From the IMG/VR virus record IMGVR_UViG_3300011268_000916, positions 63-64,062 of that record: a stretch of DNA of 64,000 nucleotides. One strand, written 5' to 3'. The stretch's first letter is position 1; every line of letters begins with the position of its first letter. The position numbers and the translations under genes are program-made. This document shows, piece after piece, positions 2,897-36,046 of the stretch. The notes beneath the pieces were generated by a model, which was not told where the DNA came from, made no database searches, and saw only the letters and a list, made by a program, of their open reading frames with translations. Source of the DNA: a virus.

Positions 2897-2898
2897 AT

Positions 2899-3749: not shown

Positions 3750-4053
3750 AAATTTAAACGAAGTTAAATCTCTTTCGTCATTATTCAGTATAACTCCTGA
3801 GATGGCTGAAGTGCATCGTCAACTTGTTGAAGTCACAAGACGTATTGAACGTATTGAACAACGTCTTCCTAGTTCTTGGATTCCACAATATCGAATTAGA
3901 AATGATTCTGAGTACACTCCTCTTGGCGGTGTACTTGATAAGATCTTTGAACAGATTGATGACATCTATGACAAGATGGAAGAATCATTTCAAGTTGATG
4001 CCCCAGATTATCAGAAACAACTAGATAAGTTAAATAAGGATAATGGCAATTAA
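3739..4053 (+). CDS. Hypothetical coiled-coil protein (104 aa)
   Basis: In-frame ATG at 3739 in track ORF 3718..4053, overlapping both neighbours in operon fashion. Confidence 0.7.
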   Translation: MNSENLNEVKSLSSLFSITPEMAEVHRQLVEVTRRIERIEQRLPSSWIPQYRIRNDSEYTPLGGVLDKIFEQIDDIYDKMEESFQVDAPDYQKQLDKLNKDNGN

Positions 4054-19300: not shown

Positions 19301-22300
19301 ATAACTCAGGTGAATTGAAGTTTGAAAGTTATTTATTAATTCCAGAATCTGATAGAGGCGCTGGCATTACACAAGAAACATTTGAAATTACAGCTTCTAA
19401 ATCATTCATCAAAGATAATGATTTATATCTACTTGTAGAAACTGTATATAGACAAATTTCTTCCGAGTTGGTAAAAGATTTAATCATTATTAAATATGAT
19501 ATTTCATCAGAGCAACCACTAAAACTATCAACTAGTGTTTTATTATCTAGTGGATCTTATGAAGTATCTCCTATTGGAATGTTTGTAGAAGATTTTGAAA
19601 ATAGAGAAATTAATATTATTTCAAATATATTAAATTACCCAGGATCTGAAAACAAAGAATCTATTTTACTTCTAAAGGTAACGGAAGATCAACCAACAAA
19701 CATCAATACTTTAAGTTTTACTTCGACAAACACATCAGTAAGAGTAAACAACGCATTAACAAATTCAAATACCATATTCTTATCAAATACTTTCTATGAA
19801 AATCAACCAGTGGTATATACATCATTCTTGCCGATTGGTGGATTAGAATCAAATACTGTTTACTATATAATTAGCGTTGATAACGAGAAATTTAAACTGT
19901 CAAAAACTCCATCTGGAACTCCAGTACAGTTAACTTCTTTGGGTGATAATTTATTGAATGCACATACGATTTCTCCTGTTCTTATTCCATCATATGATAT
20001 TTCTCTACAGAGAAGAATTTCTTTTGATAATGAATTACCTATAGATGATATTGGATACCAACAAATCAGTGTTTCTGCAAAATCTTTTGATGTAAATGAA
20101 TCTAATTTCGTCATCTCATCCACATCTAATAACAAACCATATTTAATTAAAATAAACAAATCTACTTTTAGTGTAGATTGGATCAAAGAAGTATCTGGAA
20201 TTACATCTTTATTGAATAAACATTTCATTAAATTTAATCAATTTAATGAAATATATTTTGCTTTCAACGAACAAATAGTTAGACTTGATATTGATGGAGA
20301 CATTATTAGAGAAGTAACAATTCCATCTTATACATCAGATCATGAAGTGTCTTCTTTATTCTTTGACTATTTTGACAATGTAATTGTCATTTTAAATGAT
20401 GACAGTGGAGTTAACAGTAAAGTAGTTGTGAATTATTTTGATTATAAACTTGACTATTTAAAAACACAAACCATATCAGAATCCAATGTAAATATTTCAG
20501 TTTCATCTTCTGTTTTGGATTTATATAACAGTGTATATTTGACCATCACAGAATCTACAAATAATTACTATTCATACATTTATAGGACATACAAAGAACT
20601 TCAGAATAATACTTCAAATAATATTACGATGTCTAATTCGACATCATTAATAACTGAAGCTGAACTTGAAGATTTTACAACTTCATTCACAAATAATTCT
20701 AATATCATCGGTCGTCAAGGCACACAGTTTAGTAATTTCTCTATTACTGATATTAATATCTTTGAAACTGATTGCCCTAAATCCTATCAAGTATCTTCTA
20801 CTTTTGCAGATATTTTCTCAGAAAAAGTATCTACTAAAGGATCAAAACCTGCGTTTGATATCACTTTAAACAAAAAATATTATATCGAAAAAGATTCTAT
20901 CGAATTTATTTCACCAGTAGTAACTTACCAATTAAATAAAACTGTAAACTATCCTGTAGGATCTACAGTTTTATTTACAGATAATGAAAATCTATCAAAT
21001 ACTTATTCTGGTGTAATTTTAGATAAAGGAATACAAACCTTAACAGTTACAGAATTTTCTTCATCTAATTCAGATCTTATAGAAAATATTCTTGATAATT
21101 CAAATGTTAAACTTAGAAATCAAAATCCATTCTACAATTCTAAGATTAACAATACATTTGTAAATTTTGAAAAAATAGAGGCTAAATTAGAGATTTCAAA
21201 TATTACTGCAGATTCTGTATTTTTACCAGGAGATACTGTTGAATTTTTAACTCCTTCTACTGGAAATACATTTGTTTACAGAGGAAAAGCAACAATACTT
21301 TCTTATAACGAAACAACAAATATAATTTCATTTAAAAATGTATTTGATGATGGAATTTCAGAAGCTACACGAGTTAGAATTACTAAGACTATAGGTGGAG
21401 AAAATACAGTAACAGCTTTTGCTGAGTTCCTTTATGCTACTGACTGGGATTATATTGATAAATTTGAATTTGAAATTCCATCAGAATATGAAGATGATTA
21501 TATTTTTGAATCTGATAATATTACAAATGGATCTATAGTTTCTATAAAGGTGGTTAATTCTGGTACTGACTATACTGTTGCTCCTAGCGTAATCGTTCAA
21601 AATCAACCTGGAGTAAATGGTAGTGGTTTAATAGCAATAGCAGTTCTCAATGGAAATGGAGGAGTTGATAGAATTCTAGTAGAAAATGGTGGTGCTAAAT
21701 TTACTAAAACACCAAACATTATTCTTTTAGGTGGAGACGGACAGGGAGCCACAGCAAAAGTTACAAGAATGAGATTTGTTAGTGAAGTTTATACTATACA
21801 AGTGATAGACAGAGAACAGAATTTAGATTTGACAAATTCTACAATTTATGATGAAGTTGAACTAGGAGATGTTATTACTCAAACTTCAACTTCTGCATCT
21901 GGAATTGTAGTCTCTAAAAATAGAGATCATGTAAGGGTTAGATTGTCAAATCAAAGTAGATTTGACACTTCTTCAGTTTCTATATCTGGAGTTAGAACAG
22001 AATCTACTTATTCTGCCTCAGGTGTTGGTATAACTTCAGTATCACCTTGCGTATTTTTCAGTGGTGAATCGACCACTATGAAATCTGTATTAGATGAATA
22101 TGATGTTAATTACACAAATCAATTCTATCCAGAACTAACTGTAAATTCTAATAATAATATTTCTATTTCCAGACTATATGGTGTAAGTAAGATAAACTTA
22201 ATTACACGATTGTTTGAATATGTTTATCAAATACCTGGTGAAAATCTAGTACATGAAGACAAAATCTTTATTAAGACTACGGATGACCATAACTTAAGAG

Positions 22301-25300
22301 AAAATTCTTTAGCAACTCTGGTCCTTCCATCTACATACTCTCAGATTAATTTAGTAGATCAAATTATTTCAGAAAATGAATTTATCTTTAGACTATACAA
22401 TATTGACTTGAATAACTTACCACATAATGTATTCAATCCTTCTACATCCGAACTATATTACAAAGCCCCATCATTTAATATGGTGTATGGCCATACCTAT
22501 AGATTTGACGTATCAGATCCTAGCAATACTGGAACTTTATTTAATTTCTCTAGAGATGATAGTAACAGAGTTGTATACACCTTTAACAATGTTGTAAGAA
22601 ATAATATTGTTCCTGGTCAATCTGGATCATATGTTGATTTTGTGGTTGAATCTAACGCTGGACAACTATCCTATTATTTCAATGAAGCTAATTCTGATGG
22701 TAATAATTTTGTACTACCAGATTCTACTATATCTCTAAGAGAAACTCCCTATAATGGAACCTTTAGAGTCTATAGAGTGCTGAATGATACTCAATTATTA
22801 TACCCATTACCATACAAACCAGAATGTGATGCTTATGTTTTACTTGGTAATGAAAATACTACAAAATATCTATCATACTCTGAAACTTCTTCTGGATCTA
22901 TATCAGAAATTTCTATATTTAATAATGGGGGATATTTTAAAGTTCTTCCGAGAGTATCTGGAATTTTATGTCCTAGAAAAATTGAAAAGATTGAAATTTT
23001 AAACGGAGGAACAGAGTACGAACCTGGAATCTATAGGGATGTTCCTATTTTGGGTGATGGCGTAGGTGGATTAGTTGATATTACAGTTACTCCAGAAGTA
23101 ATAACAAACGAACTTGACGAAGAAATAATTACAGGTAGAATTACGCAAGCAGTAGTTACAAACCCTGGCGAAGGATATACTGAAGCCACTATTAATATTG
23201 TTGATATCCCAGGAATTCTCGGATCAGCTTCAAATGGATCTGGTGGACAACTTGAAGTTGTTATCCCAGCACCTGGTACTGGAAGTAGCATTCTTCCATA
23301 TAGCGAAAAGGTTGGAAGTATTAGAAAACTTTCCAATCTAAATGTTGGTTTTGACTATACTCATGATTATACTCTAAAACCACAAATTAAGTTTCCAATA
23401 TCACTACAATTAGTAAATGCTAAAGTCATTTCAGAAGTTATAATTGATGATCCTGGATTTGGATACACATCTACTCCTATCGTTCTTATTGAAGGTGGCG
23501 GTGGATCTGGTGCTGCTGCTGTTGCAACAGTTAGAAATAATAGAGTATCTGGCATTGAACTTGTTAGTGCTGGTTCTGGTTATTTCTCTGAACCAAATAT
23601 TATTATTCAATCAAAAATTCCATACGTAGTTAACTTAGATCTCAATTTAATTCAGTTTAAAGTTCCTCATGGAATTCCTAACGGATCTACAATTAAATTA
23701 AGAGCTGAAGTAGTAGATGGAAACAATAATGTAATAATGCCAATTATTAATTATCCTGGCGGTATGGATAATTTAATAGATGATGATAATAGTTTAACTG
23801 GATCATACCAAACTACAATTTCTTTAGCTGCTATTGTAGGTGAAAGTAATGGATTACTTCCAAATCAACTTAGAATTGCTATTAATAAAAACGAAGCTCT
23901 ACTAAACAATTATTTGACCTTTGTTACTACTGGATCACCAACACAATCCCTATTGACAGAAGTTTTTGGAGCAAAAGCAACAGCAACTCTAAAATCATCT
24001 CAATTCTTAGGTAATGAGATTATCAATCAACTTGAACCTCAAATTGTAAATGGCGTAGAACAAGAAGTAACTACATGTGTTGCAAAAGTTCTTCCAAATT
24101 CTGGTTGGATTTCTGGACCTAATATTTTAAGAGTAAATGTTTTAGAAGGTGAATTTGGAATAGGTAAAAAAGTAGTAGGTTTATCATCAGAGTCATCTGG
24201 TATTGTTAATAAAGTTATTTCTGCTAGTGGATTTGGTGAAATTGGATCTACGTCTAGAATCGATGGGAAGTTTTATGAAGAAACTGGTAAGTTGAGTTCT
24301 ATTTCTCAAAGATTGCAAAGTGAGTATTATCAAAATTTTGCATACCTTATAAAAACTACAACTCCATCAGAAGACTGGAGAAATCTTGTATTAGATAATT
24401 TACATCCAATTGGATTCTCATTATTCTCTGAATATTCATATGAAACTAATAGTTCTCTACCAAGACTTAAAGCATCAACATCATTCAGTAGAGATATTTC
24501 TGTTGACGCTGCTCAGAGAAGAGGATCTAGAATTTTTTCGCCAGGGTACATTGAAGATGTTCTTAATCTAAATGAAGTTTCTGTAGTCGGTAAAAAACTC
24601 ATTACTTCTGAAAATATTATCACATCGTTTGTAGAAAAGATTGTAGATATTTCTGATAAATTTGATGGAGAAACAACTACTTTTGATCTACAAGTTAGAA
24701 GACTTATTACTAATCTAGATGGTAGTACTACAGAAGTATTGGATGTTGTTAGAAGTAATGAAAGATTCTTGATGATATTCCTGAACAATATTCTACAATC
24801 TCCAGATTCTTATGTTTTCCAAAATGGACAAATTACATTTGATGAAGCTCCATCTGCTAGATTAGTATCAAAGAGTAGAAATGTTAAATTTACTAATCTA
24901 TATCCACCAGTAGGAAAGTTTACTCAAGATGAAAAGTTATACGTCGTAAGAGTAAAAGAATTTAATATTGATGGATTAAATATCTGGCAACAAACAATAG
25001 TAATTGAATCTTCTACTAATCCAAATATTGAAATTGGAGATACTGTAGAACAAAATAATATCAATGGAGTTATCACTGAAATTGGAGTTGTATTTGAAAA
25101 TAATATCTATACTGTAACTTTAGTTGTTGTATTCACTACAACTGATTCTACAATTATAACAGATGATGAGGATATTACAGTATTTTATGACAATGAAGAT
25201 CTAACAGGAACAGATTTTGATGTTACTTATGTAAGTACAAATCAAATAGCTGATCTAAGACCATTTAAATTTGATATTCTTGAGGGATCTGAAGTTGTTA

Positions 25301-28300
25301 ATGATAAAGTTGATATCTTCTCATATCAAAATGTTCAAGAAGAAGGTGAGTATTCTGTAAATATATTTGCATATAAAATTAACGATAATTTAAATCAACT
25401 GTCTGAGGACAATCAAGTAATTATAAGATTATATAATTTTGAGTCTAATCAATATGAATTAGATGAAACTTCAAATTACATTACATTATCTAATGATATT
25501 GTCGGACCTTTCATTCTATCAAGCAACGCAAGTACAGTTTCTCCATCTGATAGTAAGACAGATTTAGCTTATGATGTAAATGAAACTAATCTGTCAGTTA
25601 GATCGATCTTTACATTTGATAGTTTCTTAAACTATAACCAATCAACACCATCTTTAGTAGAATTGAATGTTGGCGATGTTTTAACATCAACAGTTAATAG
25701 AGAAGTTGCAACCGTAGTTTCTGTAAATGAAGTTACAAAAGAAGTTGAAGTTGCTATAAAATCAAATATTACTGATCCATTCATTGATGAAAATGAAACA
25801 CTTCAATCTAGAACAACTCAAGGTGAAATTGTAGAAGGTAATCTAACAAACTTTGTTTACTTTACAACTCCAAATGCAAAATATAAAGTAACTAAGATTA
25901 GATTCAAGAGTGATGATGATAATACATTTACTGATGACAATACTCCTTTACCAGTAGTTCTTACAAATGATCTGTTAGTTTCTAAAACTTATGGAACAGC
26001 TAATAATACAGATTCCTCTACTATTTTCCTTGCCATAAATGATCTGGTAGTAGGTGAAAAGAGCAGAACTTCATGTAAGATTACTGAAATAACTAGAATT
26101 AATAACATCAATGAAGTTGAAATTAGTCCTGGTACTTTATTCACTGGATATATCTTTAACAGAGTTAATAATCCAGATAATCCAAACGTATCACTAACTG
26201 ATGTATCAAAATCATATATTGTTCCATTTAATAAGTTAGAATCTTATGGAGATTTATATTATAAGGAAATAGAATCTTCTAGACTTTTATTAGATGATTA
26301 TCTCTATAATGAATCTATTGGAGATAGATTCAAGTCAATTCAACTCGAAGTTGAATATGGCGATTCTGATGAATTTAATGTAGACGATACATTAGAAATA
26401 GTCAGAGTTTCTGTTGATGTTGAAGAATCAGCTGGTAGATTTAAAGACGCTAGAAACTTAATCGTTGCAAACAAACAGGAAATCATTGATAGATCTCTTG
26501 CTGAGATTGCTATTCAACATCCAGACTTTAATTTCCCAGATGATCCAGCTGATTATGAAAGATTCAGATATTATGATTCTTATAGACTAATTCAACAAAA
26601 TAAAAAGGAAATCACTGAAAGAGCATTAGCTGAAATTGCTGTTGATTATCCAGATTTTGTATTCCCTGGTGCTCCAGTATCATCAACTCAGTACAGATTC
26701 TTTGATGCTTATAGATTAATCCAACAGAATAGACAAGAAATTATTGACTCTTCCTATGAAGAATCAATCGTTGGAGATACTAATGGAGTTAAGTGTAAGA
26801 GAGATATTGGATTCTTAGTAGATGCAGTATCATTGGATCTATTTGCTGGTGGAAATTATTACTCAAGGGAGTTTGTAAAACAATATTTCAGTGGAACTAC
26901 AACATTATTAACCAATGGACTTGCTGGTGAAATTACAAATTCAATAACGGCATTTAATAATGCTCGTGATAACATGAAGTTAGCGATTCAAAATCTTTTA
27001 ACTATCACTGACCCCACTGTAACACCAGATCCAAGCCCAGGAGTTCAAGGTGATTGCACTGATGTTTCAAATGCCATTGATAATCTTGTTGAAATTGTAA
27101 CCGTTGTATTGACTGCAGAAGATTTAGGAGAACTTCCATCAGTTAATAATGGAATGTTTATTGATGGTTCAAGTAAGTGTCTACGTGATATTGGTTATTT
27201 TGTAGATGCTATTTCACTAGACGTATTTACTGGTGGTAATGCATATTCTCGTAAGTTTACACTTCAATATTTTGATACTGCAGGTAGACCAACATCATCC
27301 TTAGCCGGTGAAGAAACTGAGTCTATCACATCATTTAATATGGCTCGTGATATGATGAAAAAGGCAATAACAAATCAGTTGTATGTTAAAGATTTAACTC
27401 TTCCATATGGTCCTGCTGAATTCGGTGGGACTGGTGGTGATGTAGAGTATAATTATTCTGGAAATGAAAATACATGTACTGATGTACAATCAAATATAAA
27501 CACTCTATGTTCTATCGTAACTACTTGCTTATCTAACAAAACTACTGATTCTCTGCCTACTGAAAATCTAGGATCATTTACAGAAAATGGAACAATTTGT
27601 GCAAGAGATATTGGTTACATTGTGGATTCTGTTGCAAGTGATCTATTCAGAGGATCAAATGTTAATGTTATCGAGTCTGCTAATTCTTACTTCGACAATA
27701 ATGGAAATATAATTTATATTATAGGCGAAGAGTCTGAAACAATAACAGCCTTTAATAAGGCTCGTGACATGATGAAGTTAGCCATCAATAACCAATTGTA
27801 TGCAAAAGACTTTACATTAATTGAAGACCCAGAGACATCAAGTAACAATGATCCAGAATCATGCGCCAATGTTCAAAGTACAATTGATACTTTAGTATCG
27901 ATTGTCACAACTACAATTATAGGTGAAGATCAAAATCTATTACCAAATCCTAACCCAGGAAGATCTTTTGTTGCTGGAGAAACTATCACCATTTCTAATG
28001 GAACTAACACTTATGAAAGTACAATATTAAGTTCTGATAATGTAAATTATATTATTTCCTTAGAAAATGTATATGAAAATGATCTAATAGTTGAAGAAAC
28101 TGAATTACTAGATTTTACTGGATACACTGTTTCTACAAATAGACAAAGTTCTATAGTAAACATTGTAGCTCCAGTAAAAGATCTCGATGTAACTAGAACA
28201 ACTGTAAAATCAAAAACATATGATATTACAACTAAGTTCACTTTAACTACTGTAACTGGACTTTCCGTTGGATTGACAGCTACTCAAGGATCTATCGTTG

Positions 28301-31300
28301 GTAAAGTTGTTGATATTATTGGAAATGATATTTACATCAATCATTTTTCATATGATACTGAAAATCATTATGTGACTGGAAATATAGTATTTAATACCAC
28401 ACCTGCAATTACCAGATCTGTTACTGCTAACTCAGCGAATAGAGAAACGATTCACTATATTTCTACATCAGAAATTGTCCCTCAAATTAATAAGTATCAA
28501 CCTACTCCAGGCACTATTCATTCGTATACTCCTTGGAACGATCTTTATGATGTTCTTGATAATAATAAATCATTTATTGTTGATTATGTTTATGAGTTAA
28601 TAACCACTCAATTTGCATACTTATCTGATAAGAATACAATAACCATTGGACGTTGTAAAAATGACCTTGCGTTAATGTTAAACGCAATTACAAACGATAT
28701 TAAACTTGGTGGAAACTATAATACAGTTCTTGCAACTAGATTCTATTTTGATTCTAACAACGAGGTAAACTTCTTGAAAGGTGAAGTTGAAGAATCTATC
28801 TGGGCATATTCAAGACTAAAAGATTTCATCAAACTATCCTCTAGGAATTTTGAAGTAGTACAGACTTGTAATCTAGTTAATAGTCAAAACTACATTACAG
28901 TTTCTGATTCAACTGGAATTGTTAGAGGTATGCTAGTGACTACAGATCAATTTGACGTAGATATCTATGTCAAGTCTGTTAGTGGAAATAATGTATATTT
29001 GATGACAGAATCTTTTGCTGATTACACATTAGTTGGAAACTATTCTGCACAAGAGGTAACATTTAATTTTGATAAGTTTAAAGTTAATTCTCAGTTTGTA
29101 TCTGTTCTTTATAATATTCCTATACAATATTCTTCAGATGTAATTAGTTCTACTACTTTAGATCAAAATATTTCAGACCTTGTTGATGTATTATTAAATG
29201 CAATAAATCCAGATTCACTAAGATTCTATAAGGATGCTGTTATTGAATTGTCAGAAACATATGAAGATGTTATCGATGATGTATATGATGATCTTAAGTT
29301 ACAGTTTAATAACTTAACTATTCCAAATGATAATTTAAACAAGTGTCAAAGAGACATGAAGATTGTTTCTGAAGCTATATTTGATGATTTGAAGTTTGGT
29401 GGTAATGTTAATACAATTAGAGCATCAGAGTTCTATGTTAATGGCGGTTCTCTTTCTCATGTGGAAACTGAACTTATTGAAACCGCATATGCTTTCTTCA
29501 AGTTAGAGACATCTTATAAAGAAATTATTGATAATAGTACAAACTATACTACTCAAGAAAAGACTGATATTCAAGAAAGAATTACAGAGTTGTTCCAATT
29601 ATTGATTAGTAAGATTACAAATGATGCTACTGGAACTATTCAGGATGCTTCTGCTCAAATTGCAAGAAATGAGAAGTTTATTGTTGATGAAGCTTTCTTA
29701 ATTACACTAGATGCAACTCCATCCGCATCATTCACTCAGTCTGAAATAACTCAGTTGTATTCATATGCTTATTCAGTAATTAAAGCTACTATTAAAAATT
29801 TACTTCTAGGAAGCAATGAGTATGTATTAGATGCATTAACCGATTTAGGTGAGACTTCTCCTTTCTATAGTAATTCATCTAAAAAATCTTTTGTTCAAGA
29901 TTTCTTCTCTGAAGTTATAAATTTAGCAAAACTATCAACGGTTAATTTCTATATTAACTCTTCAGAAGACCCATATGTGGTCCAAGAAAGTGTTCTTACA
30001 TACAAAACAGACTCTAGCATCAGCGTTGACCCCGCAGGGTGGCCATACTGTCAATCAGTACAAAATGCATTAGATACTTTTGGTACTATAATCAATAATT
30101 ATTGGACCGATCTATCTTTACCAAATGTGAGTGTTGTTGAATTTACATATTCTCCTAAGAGATTGTATCCTCAAAATTATGTACAACGTCCTATCATCAG
30201 TTCTATTTCTGAAAATGATTTATGTATCTTGAAATCATCTACTCTAACTAAGACTGCGTTTGTAAATGCAATTGATTCTGGGGTAACTAAAATTTATGAT
30301 TTACAAAAACGATTTGATCTTAATGATGAAGATGGTACTATTGAAAAATCTAATCTTGTTGGCAGTTTTGTAAATGGATCAATCTCAGTAACATTAAAAG
30401 ATATAAATGATGATGGATCAGTAAATGTTTCTATTACTGGAAATGGATCTAATATTTCTGTTGGTCAAACTTTCACTCAAGATAACGATTTCTATTCGGT
30501 AATAGAATCCATTTATAACGTTTACATTCTTAAGAATGTAAATGGAAATTTCTATAAAAATAACTATATCTTTGGAATAGATTCTGGTTCAACATCAAAT
30601 TCTTATATTAGTTCATTTGAAAGAAATACAGCTGTTATAGAAAAATCAGTTGGAGATAGACTGATCTTTGATAGTACATCTGTGGTAGGATCATTTACTT
30701 TATATGATTACGTTTATGTAAAAAATACTACATACGAATCTAGCGTGGTTTACGCTTATCAAGGATTTAATGGTCAGAGAACTCAATTCCCTCTGGTTGT
30801 AATATCTCCAACAGGAGATATTCAAGATTACTTCCCATCAGTAGAAGATTCTCCAATAATTGTATCTATTAATGGAGTCATTCAAGAATTTGATAAGGAC
30901 TATACAACGGCGTCTAATTTTATAACTTTTGCTACTCCTCCAACTAAGGACGATGAATTTCTAGCTGTTTACTATGGTAAGTGGAGAAAGATTGACGACA
31001 TCTCTCCACAATTTGATGGCATCACTCAAAGTTTTGGTATGGAAATTGGAGGATTACCATTTGCTATTTCAGTTTTTGGTAATGCAACAAATATTATTGT
31101 TGATAGAAACTGTTTATTTACAATAAACGGAGTAGTTCAAGTTCCTCAAGAAGGATTTACTGTAGATGGTTCTAGAATTAGATTTTCTTCTGCTCCAAAA
31201 CCAGGATCTAGTTTTGTTGGTTATGTATACGTCGGTTCAGCTATTGACGTTGACTCTATTGAAGTTATTCCTCAAATTGAACCAACTGATATTATTAGAT

Positions 31301-34300
31301 TAAATAAAGAGGATACAAATAGGACTGTTGCAACAGTCGATAACTTAACTTCAGTTACAACATTTGAATATTCTGGAGATAGAATTGGAAGAACTGCTTC
31401 TGCAACTGCAACTATAAGAACAGGAAAGATAAATGGAGCCTCTTTAACATCTGGTGGTTCTGGTTATATTAGAAGACCAAGAATTACAATTAATTCATCC
31501 AGTGGTGATGAAGCAAGATTGACAGCTCAACTTGGAGTATCAAATGTAGAAGTCATTAACGCTGGATCTGGATATCTAAAACCATCTGTACAAGTAATTT
31601 CAAATACTGGAACTGGATTTACTGGAGAAATTTTATTTGAACCAGATTCAAATAATACTCAGAAGATCTCAGCTATTAAAGTTATTAATAGTGGATTTGG
31701 ATATTCATCATCAGATGAAGTTTCTATATCTAATGTTGGAAATCCAGAAATCCCAGTAGAATTTAAAGTTGTAGTAAATCAAGCTGGTGGTATTGAAAAT
31801 ATCTATCCAGTATTGATTGGTATTATCGAAATTAATGAAGGTGACTGGGATGGAGCTTTATTTGATGAATATACAGAAAACGACTTTAAGTTTAGAATTC
31901 GTGGAGCCACAAGTAAATCAGAAGCTGTATTTGTAAGTGGTGGAGAATCTGAAGCTAAGATTTTTGTCAAAGATCTAACAGGTTCATTTATCCCTGGAGA
32001 AAACATTAATATAGTTTCATTTACAAATAATGTTTCTTTAGGAAAACTAACCTCTGTAGAGTCCTTCTACTTAAACGTTGGTGGAAGCGGTTACAATCCT
32101 CTGAGATTAAAAGTTACTTATACTGGCGAGGGGACGATTCCTGCAGGAGGATTCGTAGAAGTCGGAACTCAAATTCAATATCAATTCGATACATTCTCCA
32201 AACTAAGTGATAGTGATTTTGTTATTAATATTGATAAGTCTTATTCTTATGTTGAAGATAGAGATTTCTATATTGGAGAAAAAATCGATGTATATGCAAG
32301 ATCTAATGGAGTCAAAACTGGAACTGTCAAACATTTTGTAGTTGAATCGTGGAATCCAACTACGTTAAAACTTACAGTATCAAAACCAACACCAATAAAA
32401 GTAGATATTGTTTTAGATCAAAATGGTTCGGTAACTAATGCTATTGTTATTAATAAAGGAAACAATTACTATAATGTATTAGATTACGCAGTAACTCTTG
32501 AGGGACAAACAGAAACTGAATATGACGAGGCTTCATTTGAATTGTCAATAGGATCTATAACAGATATTATTGTTACTCCATATACAATTGGTAATACATC
32601 TTATGATGGATTTGGTAGAGACTACTCTACTTCTGACACTGTTGTAATACAACCAATTGATGAATTTGGTGGAGTCGAAAATGTTGTTGGATCTGGATCT
32701 GGAGCAACAATAAAATTAAATGTTAATGCATTTGGTGGAGAAATAGAATCTATTACAATACCAGAGAACTTAAGAGGATCTCAATATTATACAACTCCTG
32801 TGATTATTACTAAAGGTGGTGGTGGATATGGTGTTAAAGTATTAGCATCTATCGAAAACAATCTAGTTTCTGATGTAGAGTTTGTTTCTAGGGGTGTTGG
32901 ATTTGAATCTGTACCAGAAATTATTTTCGCTCAAAAAGTACTTCTAACTAAGGAAAGTAAGATTAGATCATATTTAACATCTAAGAGTGATAAATTAGCC
33001 GGATTAGTTAAGAATGTAACTGAAGATGATACTCAGATTTTTGTTTCAAGTACTGGTGGATTTACTTCTAGTGGAACTTTAATTCTTGGTAAAGAAGTTA
33101 TTACTTATAGCGGCAAAACATCAAATAGTTTTACTGGAATTACAAGAGGTATTAACTTTAACTATGATCAAAAACTTAGATTGTCTTCTGGATTCTGGAA
33201 CTTCTCAATTAATGACATCTTACCAATCATCAGAATTAATTCTGAAGAGAGTGGAAGTATAACCACAAATGTTAGAGTATATTCTTTTGAACCACAAAGT
33301 CAAGATGAAGTAATTCCACCATACCTATTCATTAAGTATGTTATTGATTCACTGGCATTTATTGATGCTGGTACTGCTCGTAGTGAGGGCACTCCATCGT
33401 ATGTTGGAGGACTATTTAATACATCATCGAATGGAAATTATATTATTAATGCCCAATCATTACATTTAAATAATGTTGATGGATTAGCTGTAGAAGACAT
33501 AGTTGAACAAACTATAGTTGTAGATCAAAACACAACTATAGTCGTAAGTGGATCAATTGTTAGAATTATTAAAGCTTCTAATAGAATAGTAGTAGAATTA
33601 GATGATGATAATACTGAATTTATTATTGGACAAGTTATCATTAACCCCAATGAACCAGATAAGACAAAAACTAGATCTATCACAACTCCTTCTGGAGGGG
33701 TTGCTGTAGAAAAAATGGGCATTAATAGATTTGATACTGATAAAATATCTGATGGTGTCACAGATACAGATCTCGATTTAATTAAAGATAAGACTTTTGT
33801 TATTTGTCAATCTGATTCTTCTACATGTAATGCTCTATATCCACAACTCAAAGGATATTCTCTATTAGATCCATCAATTGTTGAGGAATCAGGTTTCTTA
33901 ATCACTGATTCCATCTATCCAAGAAATCTAACTATAGGGGGCGAACAACCATATGGTTATATATCAACTGTAGAACAAGGTCCAAATAATAAAGGATTGA
34001 CATACAATGGCGTTAACAATACAGGTAGTGATTATAATGGAGAGATTGCATTAGATGGTGGATATCCATTCTCACTATATGGTGTTGAAGAAATCGATCA
34101 ACTAGGAAATACAATTGCTATCGGTGATGCACTTAGAGATGGAAATGGAAACATTGTTACTGTAGAAGATATCTCTGCGGTTAATACAGGAGAATTCCAT
34201 CAATCTCAAGTAACAATAAGAATAAACAAACCAACAACCTACGGTGAGTTGTTGATTGGACGTAAAGTAGTTGGTGCTGATAGTGGATTCTCTGGAATTA

Positions 34301-34503
34301 TTGAGTCTGTAAATATCCCAACAGGACAAAATTATATCGAACTTGTTCTTGTAGATCTTCTTTACGATGATCCATACTACGTGTTTACTATTCAATATCA
34401 ACAAGGTGAGATCATAAATATTTACAATGGTAATACTTTGATAGTTGAAGATAAGTATACAATTCAATCTTATGAGTTCAATAGCGTATTATTAAGTCAA
34501 TAA
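10336..34503 (+). CDS. gp7: Giant gp7-like baseplate wedge initiator / structural protein (8055 aa)
   Basis: Lies between gp6 and gp8. N-terminal LPDFIRED..F..LLKYYYESLE, the IK.FY..KGT..SI..FF..IF core and the LQS.YYQNFAY.IK..W...V....HP.GF segment are gp7-type. It also carries YHYH, RCC1, Gly-rich beta repeats and phycobiliprotein-like modules. Confidence 0.82.
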   Translation: MEEKLVTSSNVESLLPDFIREDSPQFTNLLKYYYESLERSSYPLDVIYNLTNYYDLDSYTPDKLISKTTLIKNTEKIDDEIVVSSTRGFPEENGSVLIDNEIILYNYRTLSPQIKFIPNITPERVKSRFVVLDEITNQFDGLQTIFDLKLLGKKVYTPSCNHILINLGDSYLTPGVDYVTNNEDSNVPIGSVQFLTAPNESTSSTPNLCIIEFLQGYVTETVKILDTVSTTSPKKVFDLKFEGSPYQPISDGYLLVFKNGDLLSLNSEYSLTDTRIIFKNNIVSSDDLFFLSIESQVPRIGTGASAYSIIDENGQLDSIVVENNGSGYEYDETPKVEIYAETGDLATAYPLINGIRRILVVEPGYGYDKDNPPSLSFNLTNVGNIKTSVTIKNESIEKVTVLNSGFNVDIEPKVTVVDPKMPVFGAVIIEESGGAGTGYIITGVEILDGGFGLTNGPKLYVDAPPFGEEKKVDRPQTATIVPIIENGQVVDVDIINGGLGFDSENPPRVKAINYRNAEVLDVKVTDGSITGISLLSGGHGYLEAPTVYIVDNRYDAEGVYIGGVGAKARAILFNNSITDIIIEDFGSGYSDSNPPIVYISSPKNAQVVAEIGKGQITGFEVVERGSGYLKSSFMNCSRGTSGLKGFDKDENTIYVNTLPECHPAGSIVYNQNSEYLKYFLRRIKNQFLPEFPDIDFEQYDIRNLIKKIKNFYAIKGTKSSIESFFQTIFDDVVDVSYPKDQIVRSSDALWSTDTIMRVELLKGNIEDVLGNIIIQNASDVDPEVTYSSSIVDAYTILQTSKKTLYELVLDTNSYEGEFKVSYTTKLSESIDRVDTTITVDSTVGWPETNGYFYVSNELVTYKSKSLNQFFECTRAANGVSRFATGGTKVSTNFYVYYNQGQPDEVVMKILGISKTESTVVDNPASNYLEGDILSLSDLGTDNITNVSGRNYPLVNSWIFNVKKIQEVVSIEVKQKAGKYVGEVLLVKNHNLIRGQSIEIFGASPAVYNGSFTVENLSATNAKTFDYNLNITEDEYNSLVSTYPSAVGDIYLSIPLEKGKSDFRPIERIISESTTDVQNCYLTDDYVYIASSGIPSYPIGLTGGERGFLGNSLLPGNQRYLKRFPKQTQVVSEKRVTEYGQLGLFLNGVPLYNYKSDKRIRFGGISQVNVLNSGRDYDVEFDPEINVYKTIQTITGLQQIKNPDGVSLKPIVNGSLREIVVLNGGSGYTEPPILTVSGGGGSGAFATAVLSGGRISRVVVDSPGSGYFQKPVINIVGGGGGSGAVLDAVVRGPISSIRIDNPGQGFQENPEIEITTGSGGRAQAIILNGRVRSIGVLSAGSNYTTPPLVVITDSKGKNASAKAIIYTSGVNKGSIERIDVLNGGSGYNKDTVKVEIIPIGTGASFSSEIFKWTFNINTQLEGKFDPKDGYVFIGKNNQFGSEYAHTKNPRFLRYLLGDNVSYDETSNTVTELPIQQVTRHSPIIGWAFDGNPIYGPYGFANPSTNPGSANPNYIPMKSGWKLKNNRLNGPSTTTYPLGSFVEDYEYSLTTGVTLDRYNGRFCKTPEFPEGVYAYFVTITGTVNSVAEFPYVVGNEFYSVPDQFNFQANSLQSNLPKNVIRYRTPYESTDIDVVRKSSDINSSLSTEDNSFNFILEDSQTITGYDGDGNPIYTTLEGYDINDDTFITDDELNPIEFIEESDIEIYNYFPTTEGDAKVDIRISNVNKFETSILEGFTIENGGQNFKVNDTLLFDTSESGGNLPSAKVASVTGENVSELTFVFEDKKPYAKITTTTDHGLTYNDRFKVETRPESESQIEYQPNPYKVKVVNGIERIDVINFGADYDPETQINYRFFNRVLDNIKDVELNSIVDVGGSLKFIEVENSGSMDLDVSEVKLSLDPPTNVTKTLFYNKRIKNDRTAALELPTGSLENLEKDQIISNDIILDNNEIQSVTSANISGNDYKVTITTVDNNLVSSGKKVLVSGFNNYTSLNGLKTVTDITGNSFSYTVTQAGLPSTIDVVSKDWDQISSSQSGAHTLAIKQDGSLWAWGQNNFGQLGTGNRTRRKVPFKVNSSQWTAISANGNKSFAIKSDGTLWAWGQNSFGELGINSTDSYKTSPVQIGTSTWTKVSSGVDHALAIKSDGTLWAWGRNNYGQLGIGSTTTYSYPVQVSTNTNWTQVHAGNSISAAINSSGELFVWGDSRNSCLGLGKIASISILNPGRSGTFTPESTVNFELSGASGKVVSWNPTTRSLILKNFTYTNVPTRNEKLYIGSDVLTSTNYGRLRSIVIHELDDFGSSLEFTRTVGTGVFSTGETITSSRGVTATVVSYDSSTKKMKISNRSGEFIRNDIVTGNSSGAKQIFNRYTPQSGTRILVPTLINTSTWTKASSSNRSTFAIKSDGTLWAWGDNFFGNLGTNDLLDKNIPTQIGTDTTWLDVSAGSYHVLGINDSALYAWGRSSSYELGNGTLDTKLTPVEITGITDIGTIEAGNASSFVIKDMSGTDAPLLVFGNATQGRLGNNKIKGLVSTPTEVQSISVILNPESTIIESSIFAINSSDSIIEVSNIVNSSGEYPNNSQYLDDDIIEVVKDNDELIIDQKITQVLTNNVLPFSSSIRLNNLDNVEIGKLIRVVSEEKSFNATITDINSVLTLTEVPSSTEIYAGNKINFTVNSVEREFLVTGVSKKGSLTISVSEYTGNDTNIVTATVSSTTGISVGDELYIFGATADTNLNGTWNIIAVPNSTTFKFGINSPLATGSYLSGLGTAIKSISGTTTLNVSLDMPVSEYVNNATINGDLDVEVEVTIPSYPLFDEDMIVISDIDSQSNSIFVRTLITDKVKTTSNPISLSDVSISMYSVTLDSQNEYDFGNYKSTFFVENDFSNEQSVKYIASNTSTPINGLISGNIYYIKNVTRYSFSLAAEVDDVETITVTTIPSTSTHRFRSVIRRKIENSSYAQNKINYTTTSIDRNENLYAFGSTFDSQGTKCITFHKFDNSGELKFESYLLIPESDRGAGITQETFEITASKSFIKDNDLYLLVETVYRQISSELVKDLIIIKYDISSEQPLKLSTSVLLSSGSYEVSPIGMFVEDFENREINIISNILNYPGSENKESILLLKVTEDQPTNINTLSFTSTNTSVRVNNALTNSNTIFLSNTFYENQPVVYTSFLPIGGLESNTVYYIISVDNEKFKLSKTPSGTPVQLTSLGDNLLNAHTISPVLIPSYDISLQRRISFDNELPIDDIGYQQISVSAKSFDVNESNFVISSTSNNKPYLIKINKSTFSVDWIKEVSGITSLLNKHFIKFNQFNEIYFAFNEQIVRLDIDGDIIREVTIPSYTSDHEVSSLFFDYFDNVIVILNDDSGVNSKVVVNYFDYKLDYLKTQTISESNVNISVSSSVLDLYNSVYLTITESTNNYYSYIYRTYKELQNNTSNNITMSNSTSLITEAELEDFTTSFTNNSNIIGRQGTQFSNFSITDINIFETDCPKSYQVSSTFADIFSEKVSTKGSKPAFDITLNKKYYIEKDSIEFISPVVTYQLNKTVNYPVGSTVLFTDNENLSNTYSGVILDKGIQTLTVTEFSSSNSDLIENILDNSNVKLRNQNPFYNSKINNTFVNFEKIEAKLEISNITADSVFLPGDTVEFLTPSTGNTFVYRGKATILSYNETTNIISFKNVFDDGISEATRVRITKTIGGENTVTAFAEFLYATDWDYIDKFEFEIPSEYEDDYIFESDNITNGSIVSIKVVNSGTDYTVAPSVIVQNQPGVNGSGLIAIAVLNGNGGVDRILVENGGAKFTKTPNIILLGGDGQGATAKVTRMRFVSEVYTIQVIDREQNLDLTNSTIYDEVELGDVITQTSTSASGIVVSKNRDHVRVRLSNQSRFDTSSVSISGVRTESTYSASGVGITSVSPCVFFSGESTTMKSVLDEYDVNYTNQFYPELTVNSNNNISISRLYGVSKINLITRLFEYVYQIPGENLVHEDKIFIKTTDDHNLRENSLATLVLPSTYSQINLVDQIISENEFIFRLYNIDLNNLPHNVFNPSTSELYYKAPSFNMVYGHTYRFDVSDPSNTGTLFNFSRDDSNRVVYTFNNVVRNNIVPGQSGSYVDFVVESNAGQLSYYFNEANSDGNNFVLPDSTISLRETPYNGTFRVYRVLNDTQLLYPLPYKPECDAYVLLGNENTTKYLSYSETSSGSISEISIFNNGGYFKVLPRVSGILCPRKIEKIEILNGGTEYEPGIYRDVPILGDGVGGLVDITVTPEVITNELDEEIITGRITQAVVTNPGEGYTEATINIVDIPGILGSASNGSGGQLEVVIPAPGTGSSILPYSEKVGSIRKLSNLNVGFDYTHDYTLKPQIKFPISLQLVNAKVISEVIIDDPGFGYTSTPIVLIEGGGGSGAAAVATVRNNRVSGIELVSAGSGYFSEPNIIIQSKIPYVVNLDLNLIQFKVPHGIPNGSTIKLRAEVVDGNNNVIMPIINYPGGMDNLIDDDNSLTGSYQTTISLAAIVGESNGLLPNQLRIAINKNEALLNNYLTFVTTGSPTQSLLTEVFGAKATATLKSSQFLGNEIINQLEPQIVNGVEQEVTTCVAKVLPNSGWISGPNILRVNVLEGEFGIGKKVVGLSSESSGIVNKVISASGFGEIGSTSRIDGKFYEETGKLSSISQRLQSEYYQNFAYLIKTTTPSEDWRNLVLDNLHPIGFSLFSEYSYETNSSLPRLKASTSFSRDISVDAAQRRGSRIFSPGYIEDVLNLNEVSVVGKKLITSENIITSFVEKIVDISDKFDGETTTFDLQVRRLITNLDGSTTEVLDVVRSNERFLMIFLNNILQSPDSYVFQNGQITFDEAPSARLVSKSRNVKFTNLYPPVGKFTQDEKLYVVRVKEFNIDGLNIWQQTIVIESSTNPNIEIGDTVEQNNINGVITEIGVVFENNIYTVTLVVVFTTTDSTIITDDEDITVFYDNEDLTGTDFDVTYVSTNQIADLRPFKFDILEGSEVVNDKVDIFSYQNVQEEGEYSVNIFAYKINDNLNQLSEDNQVIIRLYNFESNQYELDETSNYITLSNDIVGPFILSSNASTVSPSDSKTDLAYDVNETNLSVRSIFTFDSFLNYNQSTPSLVELNVGDVLTSTVNREVATVVSVNEVTKEVEVAIKSNITDPFIDENETLQSRTTQGEIVEGNLTNFVYFTTPNAKYKVTKIRFKSDDDNTFTDDNTPLPVVLTNDLLVSKTYGTANNTDSSTIFLAINDLVVGEKSRTSCKITEITRINNINEVEISPGTLFTGYIFNRVNNPDNPNVSLTDVSKSYIVPFNKLESYGDLYYKEIESSRLLLDDYLYNESIGDRFKSIQLEVEYGDSDEFNVDDTLEIVRVSVDVEESAGRFKDARNLIVANKQEIIDRSLAEIAIQHPDFNFPDDPADYERFRYYDSYRLIQQNKKEITERALAEIAVDYPDFVFPGAPVSSTQYRFFDAYRLIQQNRQEIIDSSYEESIVGDTNGVKCKRDIGFLVDAVSLDLFAGGNYYSREFVKQYFSGTTTLLTNGLAGEITNSITAFNNARDNMKLAIQNLLTITDPTVTPDPSPGVQGDCTDVSNAIDNLVEIVTVVLTAEDLGELPSVNNGMFIDGSSKCLRDIGYFVDAISLDVFTGGNAYSRKFTLQYFDTAGRPTSSLAGEETESITSFNMARDMMKKAITNQLYVKDLTLPYGPAEFGGTGGDVEYNYSGNENTCTDVQSNINTLCSIVTTCLSNKTTDSLPTENLGSFTENGTICARDIGYIVDSVASDLFRGSNVNVIESANSYFDNNGNIIYIIGEESETITAFNKARDMMKLAINNQLYAKDFTLIEDPETSSNNDPESCANVQSTIDTLVSIVTTTIIGEDQNLLPNPNPGRSFVAGETITISNGTNTYESTILSSDNVNYIISLENVYENDLIVEETELLDFTGYTVSTNRQSSIVNIVAPVKDLDVTRTTVKSKTYDITTKFTLTTVTGLSVGLTATQGSIVGKVVDIIGNDIYINHFSYDTENHYVTGNIVFNTTPAITRSVTANSANRETIHYISTSEIVPQINKYQPTPGTIHSYTPWNDLYDVLDNNKSFIVDYVYELITTQFAYLSDKNTITIGRCKNDLALMLNAITNDIKLGGNYNTVLATRFYFDSNNEVNFLKGEVEESIWAYSRLKDFIKLSSRNFEVVQTCNLVNSQNYITVSDSTGIVRGMLVTTDQFDVDIYVKSVSGNNVYLMTESFADYTLVGNYSAQEVTFNFDKFKVNSQFVSVLYNIPIQYSSDVISSTTLDQNISDLVDVLLNAINPDSLRFYKDAVIELSETYEDVIDDVYDDLKLQFNNLTIPNDNLNKCQRDMKIVSEAIFDDLKFGGNVNTIRASEFYVNGGSLSHVETELIETAYAFFKLETSYKEIIDNSTNYTTQEKTDIQERITELFQLLISKITNDATGTIQDASAQIARNEKFIVDEAFLITLDATPSASFTQSEITQLYSYAYSVIKATIKNLLLGSNEYVLDALTDLGETSPFYSNSSKKSFVQDFFSEVINLAKLSTVNFYINSSEDPYVVQESVLTYKTDSSISVDPAGWPYCQSVQNALDTFGTIINNYWTDLSLPNVSVVEFTYSPKRLYPQNYVQRPIISSISENDLCILKSSTLTKTAFVNAIDSGVTKIYDLQKRFDLNDEDGTIEKSNLVGSFVNGSISVTLKDINDDGSVNVSITGNGSNISVGQTFTQDNDFYSVIESIYNVYILKNVNGNFYKNNYIFGIDSGSTSNSYISSFERNTAVIEKSVGDRLIFDSTSVVGSFTLYDYVYVKNTTYESSVVYAYQGFNGQRTQFPLVVISPTGDIQDYFPSVEDSPIIVSINGVIQEFDKDYTTASNFITFATPPTKDDEFLAVYYGKWRKIDDISPQFDGITQSFGMEIGGLPFAISVFGNATNIIVDRNCLFTINGVVQVPQEGFTVDGSRIRFSSAPKPGSSFVGYVYVGSAIDVDSIEVIPQIEPTDIIRLNKEDTNRTVATVDNLTSVTTFEYSGDRIGRTASATATIRTGKINGASLTSGGSGYIRRPRITINSSSGDEARLTAQLGVSNVEVINAGSGYLKPSVQVISNTGTGFTGEILFEPDSNNTQKISAIKVINSGFGYSSSDEVSISNVGNPEIPVEFKVVVNQAGGIENIYPVLIGIIEINEGDWDGALFDEYTENDFKFRIRGATSKSEAVFVSGGESEAKIFVKDLTGSFIPGENINIVSFTNNVSLGKLTSVESFYLNVGGSGYNPLRLKVTYTGEGTIPAGGFVEVGTQIQYQFDTFSKLSDSDFVINIDKSYSYVEDRDFYIGEKIDVYARSNGVKTGTVKHFVVESWNPTTLKLTVSKPTPIKVDIVLDQNGSVTNAIVINKGNNYYNVLDYAVTLEGQTETEYDEASFELSIGSITDIIVTPYTIGNTSYDGFGRDYSTSDTVVIQPIDEFGGVENVVGSGSGATIKLNVNAFGGEIESITIPENLRGSQYYTTPVIITKGGGGYGVKVLASIENNLVSDVEFVSRGVGFESVPEIIFAQKVLLTKESKIRSYLTSKSDKLAGLVKNVTEDDTQIFVSSTGGFTSSGTLILGKEVITYSGKTSNSFTGITRGINFNYDQKLRLSSGFWNFSINDILPIIRINSEESGSITTNVRVYSFEPQSQDEVIPPYLFIKYVIDSLAFIDAGTARSEGTPSYVGGLFNTSSNGNYIINAQSLHLNNVDGLAVEDIVEQTIVVDQNTTIVVSGSIVRIIKASNRIVVELDDDNTEFIIGQVIINPNEPDKTKTRSITTPSGGVAVEKMGINRFDTDKISDGVTDTDLDLIKDKTFVICQSDSSTCNALYPQLKGYSLLDPSIVEESGFLITDSIYPRNLTIGGEQPYGYISTVEQGPNNKGLTYNGVNNTGSDYNGEIALDGGYPFSLYGVEEIDQLGNTIAIGDALRDGNGNIVTVEDISAVNTGEFHQSQVTIRINKPTTYGELLIGRKVVGADSGFSGIIESVNIPTGQNYIELVLVDLLYDDPYYVFTIQYQQGEIINIYNGNTLIVEDKYTIQSYEFNSVLLSQ
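16402..17928 (+). repeat. Seven RCC1-type repeats (beta-propeller) within gp7, split by an insertion
   Basis: Repeated AIKSDGTLWAWG.N..G.LG motifs: four copies at 16402-16956 and three at ~17443-17928. Confidence 0.85.
26437..30110 (+). repeat. Phycobiliprotein-like (globin-fold) helical repeats within gp7
   Basis: CKRDIGF (Cys codon 26794), CLRDIGY (27178), CARDIGY (27598), CKNDLAL (28654), CQRDMKI (29344); R..A..LI..N...I...A...I...PD segments; second conserved Cys at 27055, 27475, 27862 and 30049. Confidence 0.65.
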
Positions 34504-34528: not shown

Positions 34529-36046
34529 ATGACCGCTTTAATTACTGATCAGTTTAGGATCTTTTTGTCAAAACAATTCATATCATCTTTTGATACTCAA
34601 CAAACAACTCCAGATTCTTTATACGTTTTTGTGGGAAGACCACAAGCTTGGGAAGATTCTACTGGTGGAGACTCATCTCCACCAGATCCAATAGATAGTT
34701 TTGAACAGTATTCAGATATCTATGATGATATGGTTGCTATGAAGAGAATTTTGCCCACAGATATTTTACCTGTGGTAAGGAGAATTAATTGGATTCCACC
34801 AGAACAAACTACGGGTGGATTGGGATTTACATATGACATGTATAGACATGATTATTCGATTTATAATCCTGCTGCTAGTGGAGCTACATCTTTATACGAT
34901 GCAGACTTCTATGTAGTTAATAGTCAATATCAAGTTTTCAAATGTATTTACAATGGAACTTCTCCATCAGATCCTAATGGAAAGCCCTCAACAATTGAAC
35001 CAACTGGAACATCCAATGCAATCATCACTACGTCTGATGGATATAGATGGAAGTATATGTATACTTTGACGGTTGACCAAATTATTAGATTCTTATCTAA
35101 AGATTATCTACCTGTAATTCAAGATACTACAGTTTCCACCAATACAAGTAATGGTGAGATTGATACTATTCTGATTGTAAATTCTGGAAGTGGTTATAAC
35201 AATGGAGTTTATGAAAACATAGCTATCAATGGTGATGGTAAAGGTGGAAGAGTAACTATTGTAATTGATGGCGGTAAAGTCTCTCAAGTTAATGTATTGA
35301 ATGGAGGAAGTGAATATTCCTTCGGTCAAATAGATATTGATGGAATAACTGGTATTGGTTCTGGTACTGGAGCTCAGGTTAATGTTATTATCCCACCTCA
35401 AGGTGGACATGGAAAAGATACGTTAACTGAATTGGGAGCTTTTAGAATTCTTATTAATACCAAATTTTCATATGATGAAGGTCTTGGTGACTTCCCAACA
35501 GATAATGATTTTAGAAGAATTGGATTAATTATCAATCCATTAGTAAGAGGAACTAATACTACTGCAACTTCTTTGACTTATAGTTTAACAAAAGCTATTG
35601 CATTTCCATTGAGTTTTACAGGATCTTTTACTCCAGATGCTACTATTCAACAAACAAGAACAGTTGGAGCAACATCTGTAGTTTCTAGAGGAGTTGTTGT
35701 TTCTTGGAATCCAATTACAAAAGTTCTAAAGTATTTTCAAAACAGAGTCAAGGGTATTTTCCCAGAAGGAACTGGACCTTTGAATGAGTTTGTTGGATCA
35801 GAAAACGTATCTATCCCAGGAGGAACTACATCAGTTTCACCAGATGTAGCATTCCCCGAAATTGACAACACTAGTACTAGAACTGTAGATGGTAAAAACT
35901 ATAATCTAGGACAGAATTTTACTCAGGGTTATGCTCAACCAGAGATAGAAAAAAACTCTGGAAAAATTATCTATATAGATAATAGAAGACCAATTGTTAG
36001 ATTCCCTGACCAGGTTGAAGACATCAAAATCATTATCGAGTTCTAA
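34529..36046 (+). CDS. gp8: Baseplate wedge subunit gp8
   Basis: ITDQFRI...LYVFVGRPQAW, MKRI....VVRRINW, YDMYRHDY, DGYRWKYMYT and SG.IIYIDNRRPI.R...Q.EDIKIIIEF motifs. Confidence 0.93.
   Translation: MTALITDQFRIFLSKQFISSFDTQQTTPDSLYVFVGRPQAWEDSTGGDSSPPDPIDSFEQYSDIYDDMVAMKRILPTDILPVVRRINWIPPEQTTGGLGFTYDMYRHDYSIYNPAASGATSLYDADFYVVNSQYQVFKCIYNGTSPSDPNGKPSTIEPTGTSNAIITTSDGYRWKYMYTLTVDQIIRFLSKDYLPVIQDTTVSTNTSNGEIDTILIVNSGSGYNNGVYENIAINGDGKGGRVTIVIDGGKVSQVNVLNGGSEYSFGQIDIDGITGIGSGTGAQVNVIIPPQGGHGKDTLTELGAFRILINTKFSYDEGLGDFPTDNDFRRIGLIINPLVRGTNTTATSLTYSLTKAIAFPLSFTGSFTPDATIQQTRTVGATSVVSRGVVVSWNPITKVLKYFQNRVKGIFPEGTGPLNEFVGSENVSIPGGTTSVSPDVAFPEIDNTSTRTVDGKNYNLGQNFTQGYAQPEIEKNSGKIIYIDNRRPIVRFPDQVEDIKIIIEF

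Follow-up and report, generated by a model that had tools for sequence, protein, structure and literature searches.

Phycobiliproteins (PBPs; PF00502) of cyanobacteria, red algae and cryptophytes, such as the alpha and beta subunits of phycocyanin, phycoerythrin and allophycocyanin, are bilin-bearing proteins with a globin-like helical fold that are made as free subunits of ~17 kDa. A PBP-type globin can also sit within a large multidomain protein, as in the core-membrane linker ApcE, a component of the phycobilisome core with a single such domain, which needs no lyase to attach its bilin and has its bilin cysteine at a different position. [quoted passage not shown] Full-text literature searches returned no published description of a PBP-like domain in cyanophage virion proteins, the major comparative-genomics papers on cyanophages do not mention such a domain, and none of the protein names seen in PHROGs, GenBank, RefSeq or BFVD refers to one; the giant gp7-like proteins of cyanomyoviruses are named there only as ‘structural protein’, ‘tail protein’ or ‘short tail fiber protein’. 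Here we analyse a 64,000-nucleotide stretch of viral DNA (positions 63 to 64,062 of IMG/VR record IMGVR_UViG_3300011268_000916; the window), taken from a 73-kb viral contig that is estimated to be 40% complete. One span of it is best explained as an array of diverged PBP-family globin domains inserted in the gp7-like baseplate-wedge protein of a T4-like cyanomyovirus.

Module array

The array lies in a giant virion protein of 8055 amino acids at the gp7 position (10336..34503, + strand; ORF list and translation). It covers residues 5364-6602 of that protein with two orphan helical hairpins and six modules of ~140-160 amino acids, all on the + strand. An earlier reading, made from the letters of the window without database searches (the sequence-only reading), had placed PBP-like modules at residues 5368-6591, and every string that it quoted is present in the +1 frame of ORF 10336-34503. 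The motif C-x-[RN]-D occurs five times in the whole 8055-residue protein, always at residues 5487-6340 and thus inside that span, against a chance expectation of 0.22 calculated from the protein's own composition. Over the six modules, C-x-R-D is found in four (1, 2, 3 and 5) and C-x-N-D in one (4), and the motif is lost in one (6).

Among 1.84 billion representatives of protein clusters, 632 proteins contain relatives of the modules, a single protein having as many as 32, and 139 diverse modules drawn from these relatives make up the family alignment. Module 1 (residues 5450-5606, 26683..27153; family profile E 4e-50) is of a long type with its own A/B hairpin, and modules 2 (residues 5599-5746, 27130..27573; E 1e-49) and 3 (residues 5732-5875, 27529..27960; E 4.5e-53) are of a short type. 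Their motifs read CKRD (Cys 5487, codon 26794-26796), CLRD (Cys 5615, codon 27178-27180) and CARD (Cys 5755, codon 27598-27600), each followed by a second cysteine (Cys 5574, codon 27055-27057; Cys 5714, codon 27475-27477; Cys 5843, codon 27862-27864). A profile built from these three modules recovers the two divergent ones further along the protein: module 4 (residues 6062-6203, 28519..28944; family profile E 3.5e-27, three-module profile E 6e-12), in which the motif reads CKND, Asn standing in the place of Arg (Cys 6107, codon 28654-28656), and module 5 (residues 6293-6435, 29212..29640; E 9.5e-19 and E 5e-6, respectively), with CQRD (Cys 6337, codon 29344-29346).

Module 6 (residues 6430-6602, 29623..30141) is degenerate and without C-x-R-D; it matches the family profile at E 1.2e-4 over positions 4-152 and keeps only a cysteine of the second type (Cys 6572, codon 30049-30051). 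The later cysteines listed in the sequence-only reading are present at residues 5574, 5714, 5843 and 6572, although the last of these, in YCQSVQ, belongs to this sixth, degenerate module and not to module 5. The two orphan hairpins (residues 5364-5446, 26425..26673) match family profile positions 3-45 and 4-36 at E ~1e-4 each and give a weak match to PF00502 positions 34-67; they resemble PBP helices A/B, and no E-H part stands after them.

Sequence homology and predicted fold

Standard searches with the window's own sequence stay below their thresholds. PF00502 scores 21.7 bits against residues 5300-6650, under its 22.2-bit gathering cut-off, and automatic annotation therefore misses the domain; single modules of the window either do not match PF00502 or do so at E 0.007. 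Single-sequence phmmer searches against the PDB give E 0.26-0.6, with phycocyanin alpha chains on top (~0.3), so that profiles are needed. The module 2 stretch is the source of both the sub-threshold PF00502 match and the phycocyanin-alpha alignments. DNA megablast of the span against isolate phages gave no match.

With the family alignment the relationship becomes clear. Searching 177,635 PDB sequences with the 139-module profile retrieved almost only PBPs among the best 60 matches listed, the best being C-phycocyanin alpha (E 2.3e-5) over helix B to helix E, including Cys84-x-Arg86-Asp87. Taken individually, 38 of the 139 modules match PF00502 (best E 5.9e-6), and every other family is matched by at most two. 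An hhalign comparison of the alignment with ten PBPs from one Synechococcus genome reached a probability of 93.6% (E 2e-7, 98 columns) and paired the module C/R/D/G/Y with PBP C82/R84/D85/G100/Y117; significant profile similarity extends from helix B to helix G. In an unrooted tree, drawn without a BBAG or RsbR outgroup, the modules group together on a branch of ~2.6 changes per site, in a clade separate from every host PBP subfamily. That they derive from a host cpc, cpe or apc gene captured recently was considered and is unsupported, the modules being a single long-branch clade outside the host subfamilies in this unrooted tree.

The predicted structure points the same way. AlphaFold2 with the 139-module alignment gave a six-helix model of module 1 (pLDDT 92.6, pTM 0.89), and when this model was compared with the PDB by Foldseek, PBP chains made up 49 of the top 50 matches, nearly all at TM 0.57-0.64 over ~155-165 columns. 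A wide VIA-align search, independent of Foldseek, placed PBPs or the ApcE bilin domain at ranks 1-8 (Z 12.1-15.4, rmsd 1.9-3.2 Å). The top-ranked structures include phycoerythrin, the ApcE bilin domain as second-best match (4xxi_A, Z 14.5) and allophycocyanins, followed by RsbR-type, sensor and photocobilin globins at Z ~9-11, the photocobilin globin domains at Z ~10. A cluster search of AlphaFold DB returned just weak globin-type matches (E 0.07 or worse). The sequence-only reading had named a fold unlike that of globins as the result that would speak against it; the predicted fold is globin-like and of PBP type, PBPs being matched first. Sequence profiles and predicted fold together bear out its identification of the modules as phycobiliprotein-like globins, and we regard their homology to PBPs and their PBP-like fold as practically certain.

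A second model, of 511 amino acids (residues 5370-5880; pLDDT 92.4, pTM 0.92), covers the orphan hairpins, which are helical and confidently placed, and modules 1-3, with module 3 again at high confidence. The modules are predicted to form a rigid, fixed head-to-tail array. Modules 2 and 3 consist of four helices (E, F', G and H) without an A/B hairpin of their own, those of module 2 lying at model positions 243-263, 267-274, 291-309 and 346-365. All modules lack the X-Y helices, and structural and profile alignments begin at PBP residue ~22-40. The features by which PBPs build alpha-beta monomers and (alpha-beta)3 rings, the X-Y helices and the Asp13/Arg91 contacts, were looked for and are absent, the Arg91 position being mostly Asp.

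The modules thus share with PBPs the globin-like helical fold (Z up to 15.4, TM ~0.6), the Cys-x-Arg-Asp site on helix E with the equivalents of Gly100 and Tyr117 and, in ~63% of modules, a second cysteine at the end of the G-H loop. They differ in lacking the elements of alpha-beta pairing, namely the X-Y helices and the Asp13/Arg91 pair, and in the short modules also A/B; in having an extra near-invariant Asp and Asn; in forming a separate long-branch clade within no host PBP subfamily; and in being fused head to tail in virion proteins (6 here, up to 32 elsewhere) instead of being free subunits. Whereas PBPs bear bilins, a bilin in the modules is a predicted feature. ApcE is like the module-bearing protein in holding a PBP-type globin within a large multidomain chain, but it holds only one and belongs to the phycobilisome core, not to a virion. 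The BBAGs have their bilin genes next to them, whereas the neighbours of the giant ORF are virion structural genes, and no BBAG-type cluster of heme oxygenase and ferredoxin-dependent bilin reductase genes was found there.

Conservation of the pigment site

The residues that hold the chromophore in PBPs are the most strongly kept part of the module. Across 294 full modules the cysteine is retained in 99%, the Arg in 98%, the Asp in 99% and the Tyr in 100%, at an overall identity of just ~20-30%, and the Gly and Tyr counterparts of PBP Gly100 and Tyr117 are both kept across the family. The first cysteine aligns with PBP Cys82/84, together with the Arg and the Asp. Positions Cys+14 and Cys+20 are also near-invariant in the modules, as Asp (98%) and Asn (89%), respectively, which PBPs lack.

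The sequence-only reading had held that both bilin-attachment cysteines are present. This stands for the first, which is near-invariant, and does not stand for the second, which is kept in only ~63% of modules; its placement on the beta-153/155 cysteine, on which T-type lyases act and which lies at the end of the G-H loop, comes from a greedy alignment to beta subunits only and is of low confidence. Both cysteines occur in 185 of the 294 modules and the first alone of the two in 107, and in 91 modules there is no other cysteine whatever. An intramodule disulfide was considered as a cause of the conservation and is ruled out, because these 91 modules have no second cysteine. Poor conservation of the cysteines, or their use in disulfides, had been named in advance as grounds for rejecting the bilin site; the first cysteine is 99% kept, and a disulfide within the module is excluded.

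Distribution in phages and metagenomes

By tblastn, three module-rich queries matched 313, 146 and 159 of 50,697 isolate phage records. The matching records are, by name, Synechococcus or Prochlorococcus cyanophages plus one ‘Marine’ record, and those listed are all 170-245 kb and myovirus-sized. Among the isolate records the module is confined to marine cyanophages, and the equal abundance in phages of non-photosynthetic hosts that would have weakened a link to light is not observed there. A fourth query, residues 2062-2935 of a module-bearing metagenomic protein, matched 336 records, and this count was discarded as inflated by an unrelated beta-rich repeat. P-SSM2 (record 84911-89149) has a 5195-aa ORF with many copies of this ~100-aa beta-rich repeat, which is not PBP-like and is not matched by the PBP profile, and the same repeat sits between the PBP-like modules of that metagenomic protein.

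Profile searches found modules in 15 of 16 T4-like cyanophage genomes, and none were detected in P-SSM2 or in the podovirus P-SSP7. S-RIM2, P-HM2, S-RIM14, P-SSM4 and others have homologous giant ORFs with the same modules. A degenerate DNA pattern specific to the module was run against 185,579 prokaryote species, each represented by one genome; it matched 21 contigs, all in metagenome-assembled genomes, and no isolate genome. These contigs carry true module arrays of cyanophage type in giant ORFs and are low in G+C (32-44%); the labels of the genomes that hold them (Verrucomicrobiales, Rhodobacteraceae, Planctomycetaceae, Euryarchaeota, Flavobacteriales and others) are implausible, and the contigs are probably phage contigs mis-binned into metagenome-assembled genomes. 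Proteins with 20-32 modules come from T4-like metagenomic contigs with no assigned host. In two such contigs, proteins of 4183-4959 amino acids with ~20 modules lie beside further giant ORFs, one of them of 9270 amino acids.

Pigment genes and light-dependent adsorption

The role of cyanophage pigment genes such as cpeT is still called unclear (PMC3037559, PMC11480375). We found cpeT in 112 phage records. In S-RIM44, S-RSM4, S-PM2, Syn1, ACG-2014i and Sf-CH3 it stands just upstream, on the same strand, of a module-rich giant ‘short tail fibre’ gene, and coordinates show the same arrangement in several S-CAM and S-RIM phages. As a functional hint, this adjacency is suggestive only. ACG-2014f does not match the Pfam CpeT model and has a CpeT-like ORF by tblastn and RefSeq annotation. 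A complex prediction for a module and a phage CpeT from one contig scored 0.00, which carries no weight either way. The search for bilin genes in the rest of the genome that the sequence-only reading had proposed is answered in part: the 73-kb contig, ~40% complete, has no CpeT or Photo_RC match, and heme oxygenase and bilin reductase families were not searched directly there.

In S-RIM44 (record 20965-34263), a tRNA-Leu and a 2OG-Fe(II) oxygenase gene lie between cpeT and a 4017-aa module-bearing fibre gene, and a second 2OG-Fe(II) oxygenase gene stands just upstream of cpeT with one small ORF between them; it is conceivable that these oxygenases modify the fibre protein.

Adsorption of P-HM1, P-HM2 and S-PM2 requires light, in S-PM2 without dependence on host photosynthesis, and for P-SSM2 and P-SSP7 it proceeds in the dark (PMC6628666). 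The three light-requiring phages are module-bearing, and no modules were detected in the two that adsorb in the dark, a small set of cases that agrees with a role for light.

Discussion

The fold of the phycobiliproteins, with a strongly constrained pigment-attachment motif, has a large hidden branch in phage structural proteins. Bilin attachment is the most likely reading of this branch, because conservation is highest at the chromophore residues and the phages to which the family is confined have hosts rich in bilins. The virion protein would fold in the bilin-rich cytoplasm of an infected cyanobacterium, where the C-x-R-D cysteine could take up a bilin, phycoerythrobilin or phycocyanobilin, as a thioether. 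Attachment could be by self-assembly, as in ApcE and in the globins BBAG-1 and BBAG-3, and in modules with a second cysteine that residue could be the target of a T-type lyase, for instance phage CpeT. The outcome would be a pigmented baseplate or fibre array. With six gp7 copies in each baseplate, assumed from T4, a particle would bear roughly 30-150 bilins, for an absorbance of only about 0.01-0.03 at 1e12 particles per ml. The likeliest use of the array, and the most speculative step, would be as a light-responsive element that helps to gate adsorption. We favour the reading in which the modules carry bilin over its rivals, and judge that, taken as a whole, it stands an even chance of being right.

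If bilin is attached, the virions of some of the most abundant viruses in the ocean would be pigmented and light-responsive, with a bearing on diel infection dynamics, and the modules would offer small, lyase-independent, tandem bilin-binding scaffolds for fluorescent-protein work. Two open questions become testable with this finding, light-only adsorption without host photosynthesis (PMC6628666) and the purpose of cyanophage pigment genes like cpeT. A cyanomyovirus particle with its own bilin photoreceptor, in which bilin-bearing PBP-like globins of the baseplate and fibres change conformation or charge in light and so switch adsorption on, would account for adsorption that depends on light but not on host photosynthesis and would provide phage cpeT with a substrate in the virion. 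Virus particles would thereby gain their first known photoreceptor; we consider this reading unlikely.

Several observations weigh against bilin carriage or its link to light. The pocket may be incomplete, because short modules lack A/B and all modules lack X-Y, and the replacement of Arg91 together with the modules' own Asp (Cys+14) and Asn (Cys+20) could reflect another ligand or a structural role. Neither coloured cyanophage particles nor virion peptides with a bilin modification have, as far as we know, been reported, and phages are not known to have Cys84-site lyases (S/U or E/F type). Because cpeT stands at the edge of a variable island of metabolic genes and the clade keeps its gene order, its adjacency to fibre genes may be inherited. 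Co-occurrence of modules and cpeT carries no information, because modules are near-universal in the clade (15/16); the module-bearing S-RIM14, S-ShM2 and B3 lack any CpeT match, and P-SSM2 has a bilin reductase gene and no detectable modules. The suggestion in the sequence-only reading that the modules explain phage bilin-synthesis genes in general is weakened by these last cases. The adsorption comparison comprises five phages, two of them near-identical. On one of the T4-like metagenomic contigs described above, whose host is unassigned, gp13 is nearest to that of Microcystis phage Mel-JY01 (47%) and of Flavobacterium phages (40%); the module tblastn queries matched neither Mel-JY01 nor those Flavobacterium phages.

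A strong rival, which we hold possible if on the doubtful side, is that the modules carry no bilin at all: in this view, phages long ago acquired a PBP-family globin, which multiplied as a compact helical building block that lengthens and stiffens baseplate or fibre appendages, its conserved residues now serving folding or inter-module packing alone. Up to 32 tandem copies per protein, in highly variable number, are what spacer domains look like, and the rigid array of the 511-aa model (pTM 0.92) would suit that use. The loss of the X-Y helices, and of A/B in the short modules, the degraded motif in window modules 4 and 6, the long branch of ~2.6 changes per site between the module clade and host PBPs and the lack of any reported virion pigment are all consistent with a purely structural role. 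Such a role does not, however, predict that exactly the Cys (99%), Arg (98%) and Asp (99%) of the chromophore triad and the counterpart of Tyr117 (100%) should be the most conserved positions of domains that otherwise share 20-30% identity, nor would one expect an extracellular structural repeat to hold a lone unpaired cysteine, as 91 of 294 modules do.

The conserved pocket might instead bind a ligand other than bilin (another tetrapyrrole, a metal or a host surface molecule), or its cysteine might react with the host envelope, which would make the modules receptor-binding or adhesion units. We regard this as improbable. The module-specific Asp (Cys+14, 98%) and Asn (Cys+20, 89%) would fit it, as would the diversity of ligands among related globin folds and the location of the modules in baseplate and ‘tail fibre’ proteins, which take part in host recognition; but the conserved residues that the modules share with PBPs are those of the bilin site, no other ligand-binding family scores near PBPs, and we know of no precedent.

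That the modules act in the infected cell before assembly, soaking up bilins or host lyases or docking the baseplate to phycobilisomes or thylakoids, with their presence in the virion incidental, would accord with their kinship to phycobilisome subunits and their co-occurrence with phage genes that act on host pigments, but is highly improbable: the PBP assembly surfaces (X-Y helices, Arg91/Asp13 pair) are missing, Prochlorococcus hosts of module-bearing phages such as P-HM2 have no phycobilisomes (PMC2984593), and a late-made structural protein is an odd vehicle for a metabolic role. Mimicry of host proteins, also raised in the sequence-only reading, is unlikely for an extracellular baseplate part, phycobilisomes being intracellular.

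Genomic context

The window is the structural gene block of a T4-like cyanomyovirus. The giant ORF is flanked upstream by a gp6-like baseplate wedge gene (8232..10310, + strand; phrog_219, E 1.7e-189) and downstream by a gp8-like one (34529..36046, + strand; phrog_438, E 1.2e-192), and the protein encoded by the latter is 61% identical to gp8 of P-SSM3, P-SSM4 and S-ShM2. The N-terminus of the 8055-aa protein matches the phrog_701 virion structural protein (E 0) and the phrog_2885 baseplate wedge (E 4e-128) families and, weakly, PF23786; its homologues in S-RIM2 and P-HM2 are named ‘similar to gp7’ and ‘gp7’. Gene order (gp6 - gp7 - gp8) and N-terminal similarity place the protein in the gp7 class, so the label of baseplate protein given in the sequence-only reading fits. 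With T4 gp7, and with the giant cyanomyovirus proteins of the gp7-like or ‘short tail fibre’ kind, it shares the gene position and has matching parts at both termini (N and C).

Upstream of the wedge genes, a PAAR-motif protein (6470-6952; phrog_281, E 1.8e-22) is probably the spike-tip protein, and neck and sheath-stabiliser genes are also within the window. Two more giant structural ORFs come after gp8, at 36071-48088 (4005 aa) and 48631-54765 (2044 aa), and profile search found no PBP-like modules in either. Elsewhere in the module-bearing baseplate protein there are strong RCC1-like beta-propeller repeats (window 16249-16968 and nearby, residues ~1970-2700; PF25390 E 3.5e-72, PF00415 E 9e-62) and a YHYH domain (PF14240, E 3.2e-23; window 14725-15072, residues ~1464-1579). 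The G+C content is 30-38% over most of the window and 0.42 in its first 4,000 nucleotides (positions 1-4000), compared with 0.30-0.38 elsewhere.

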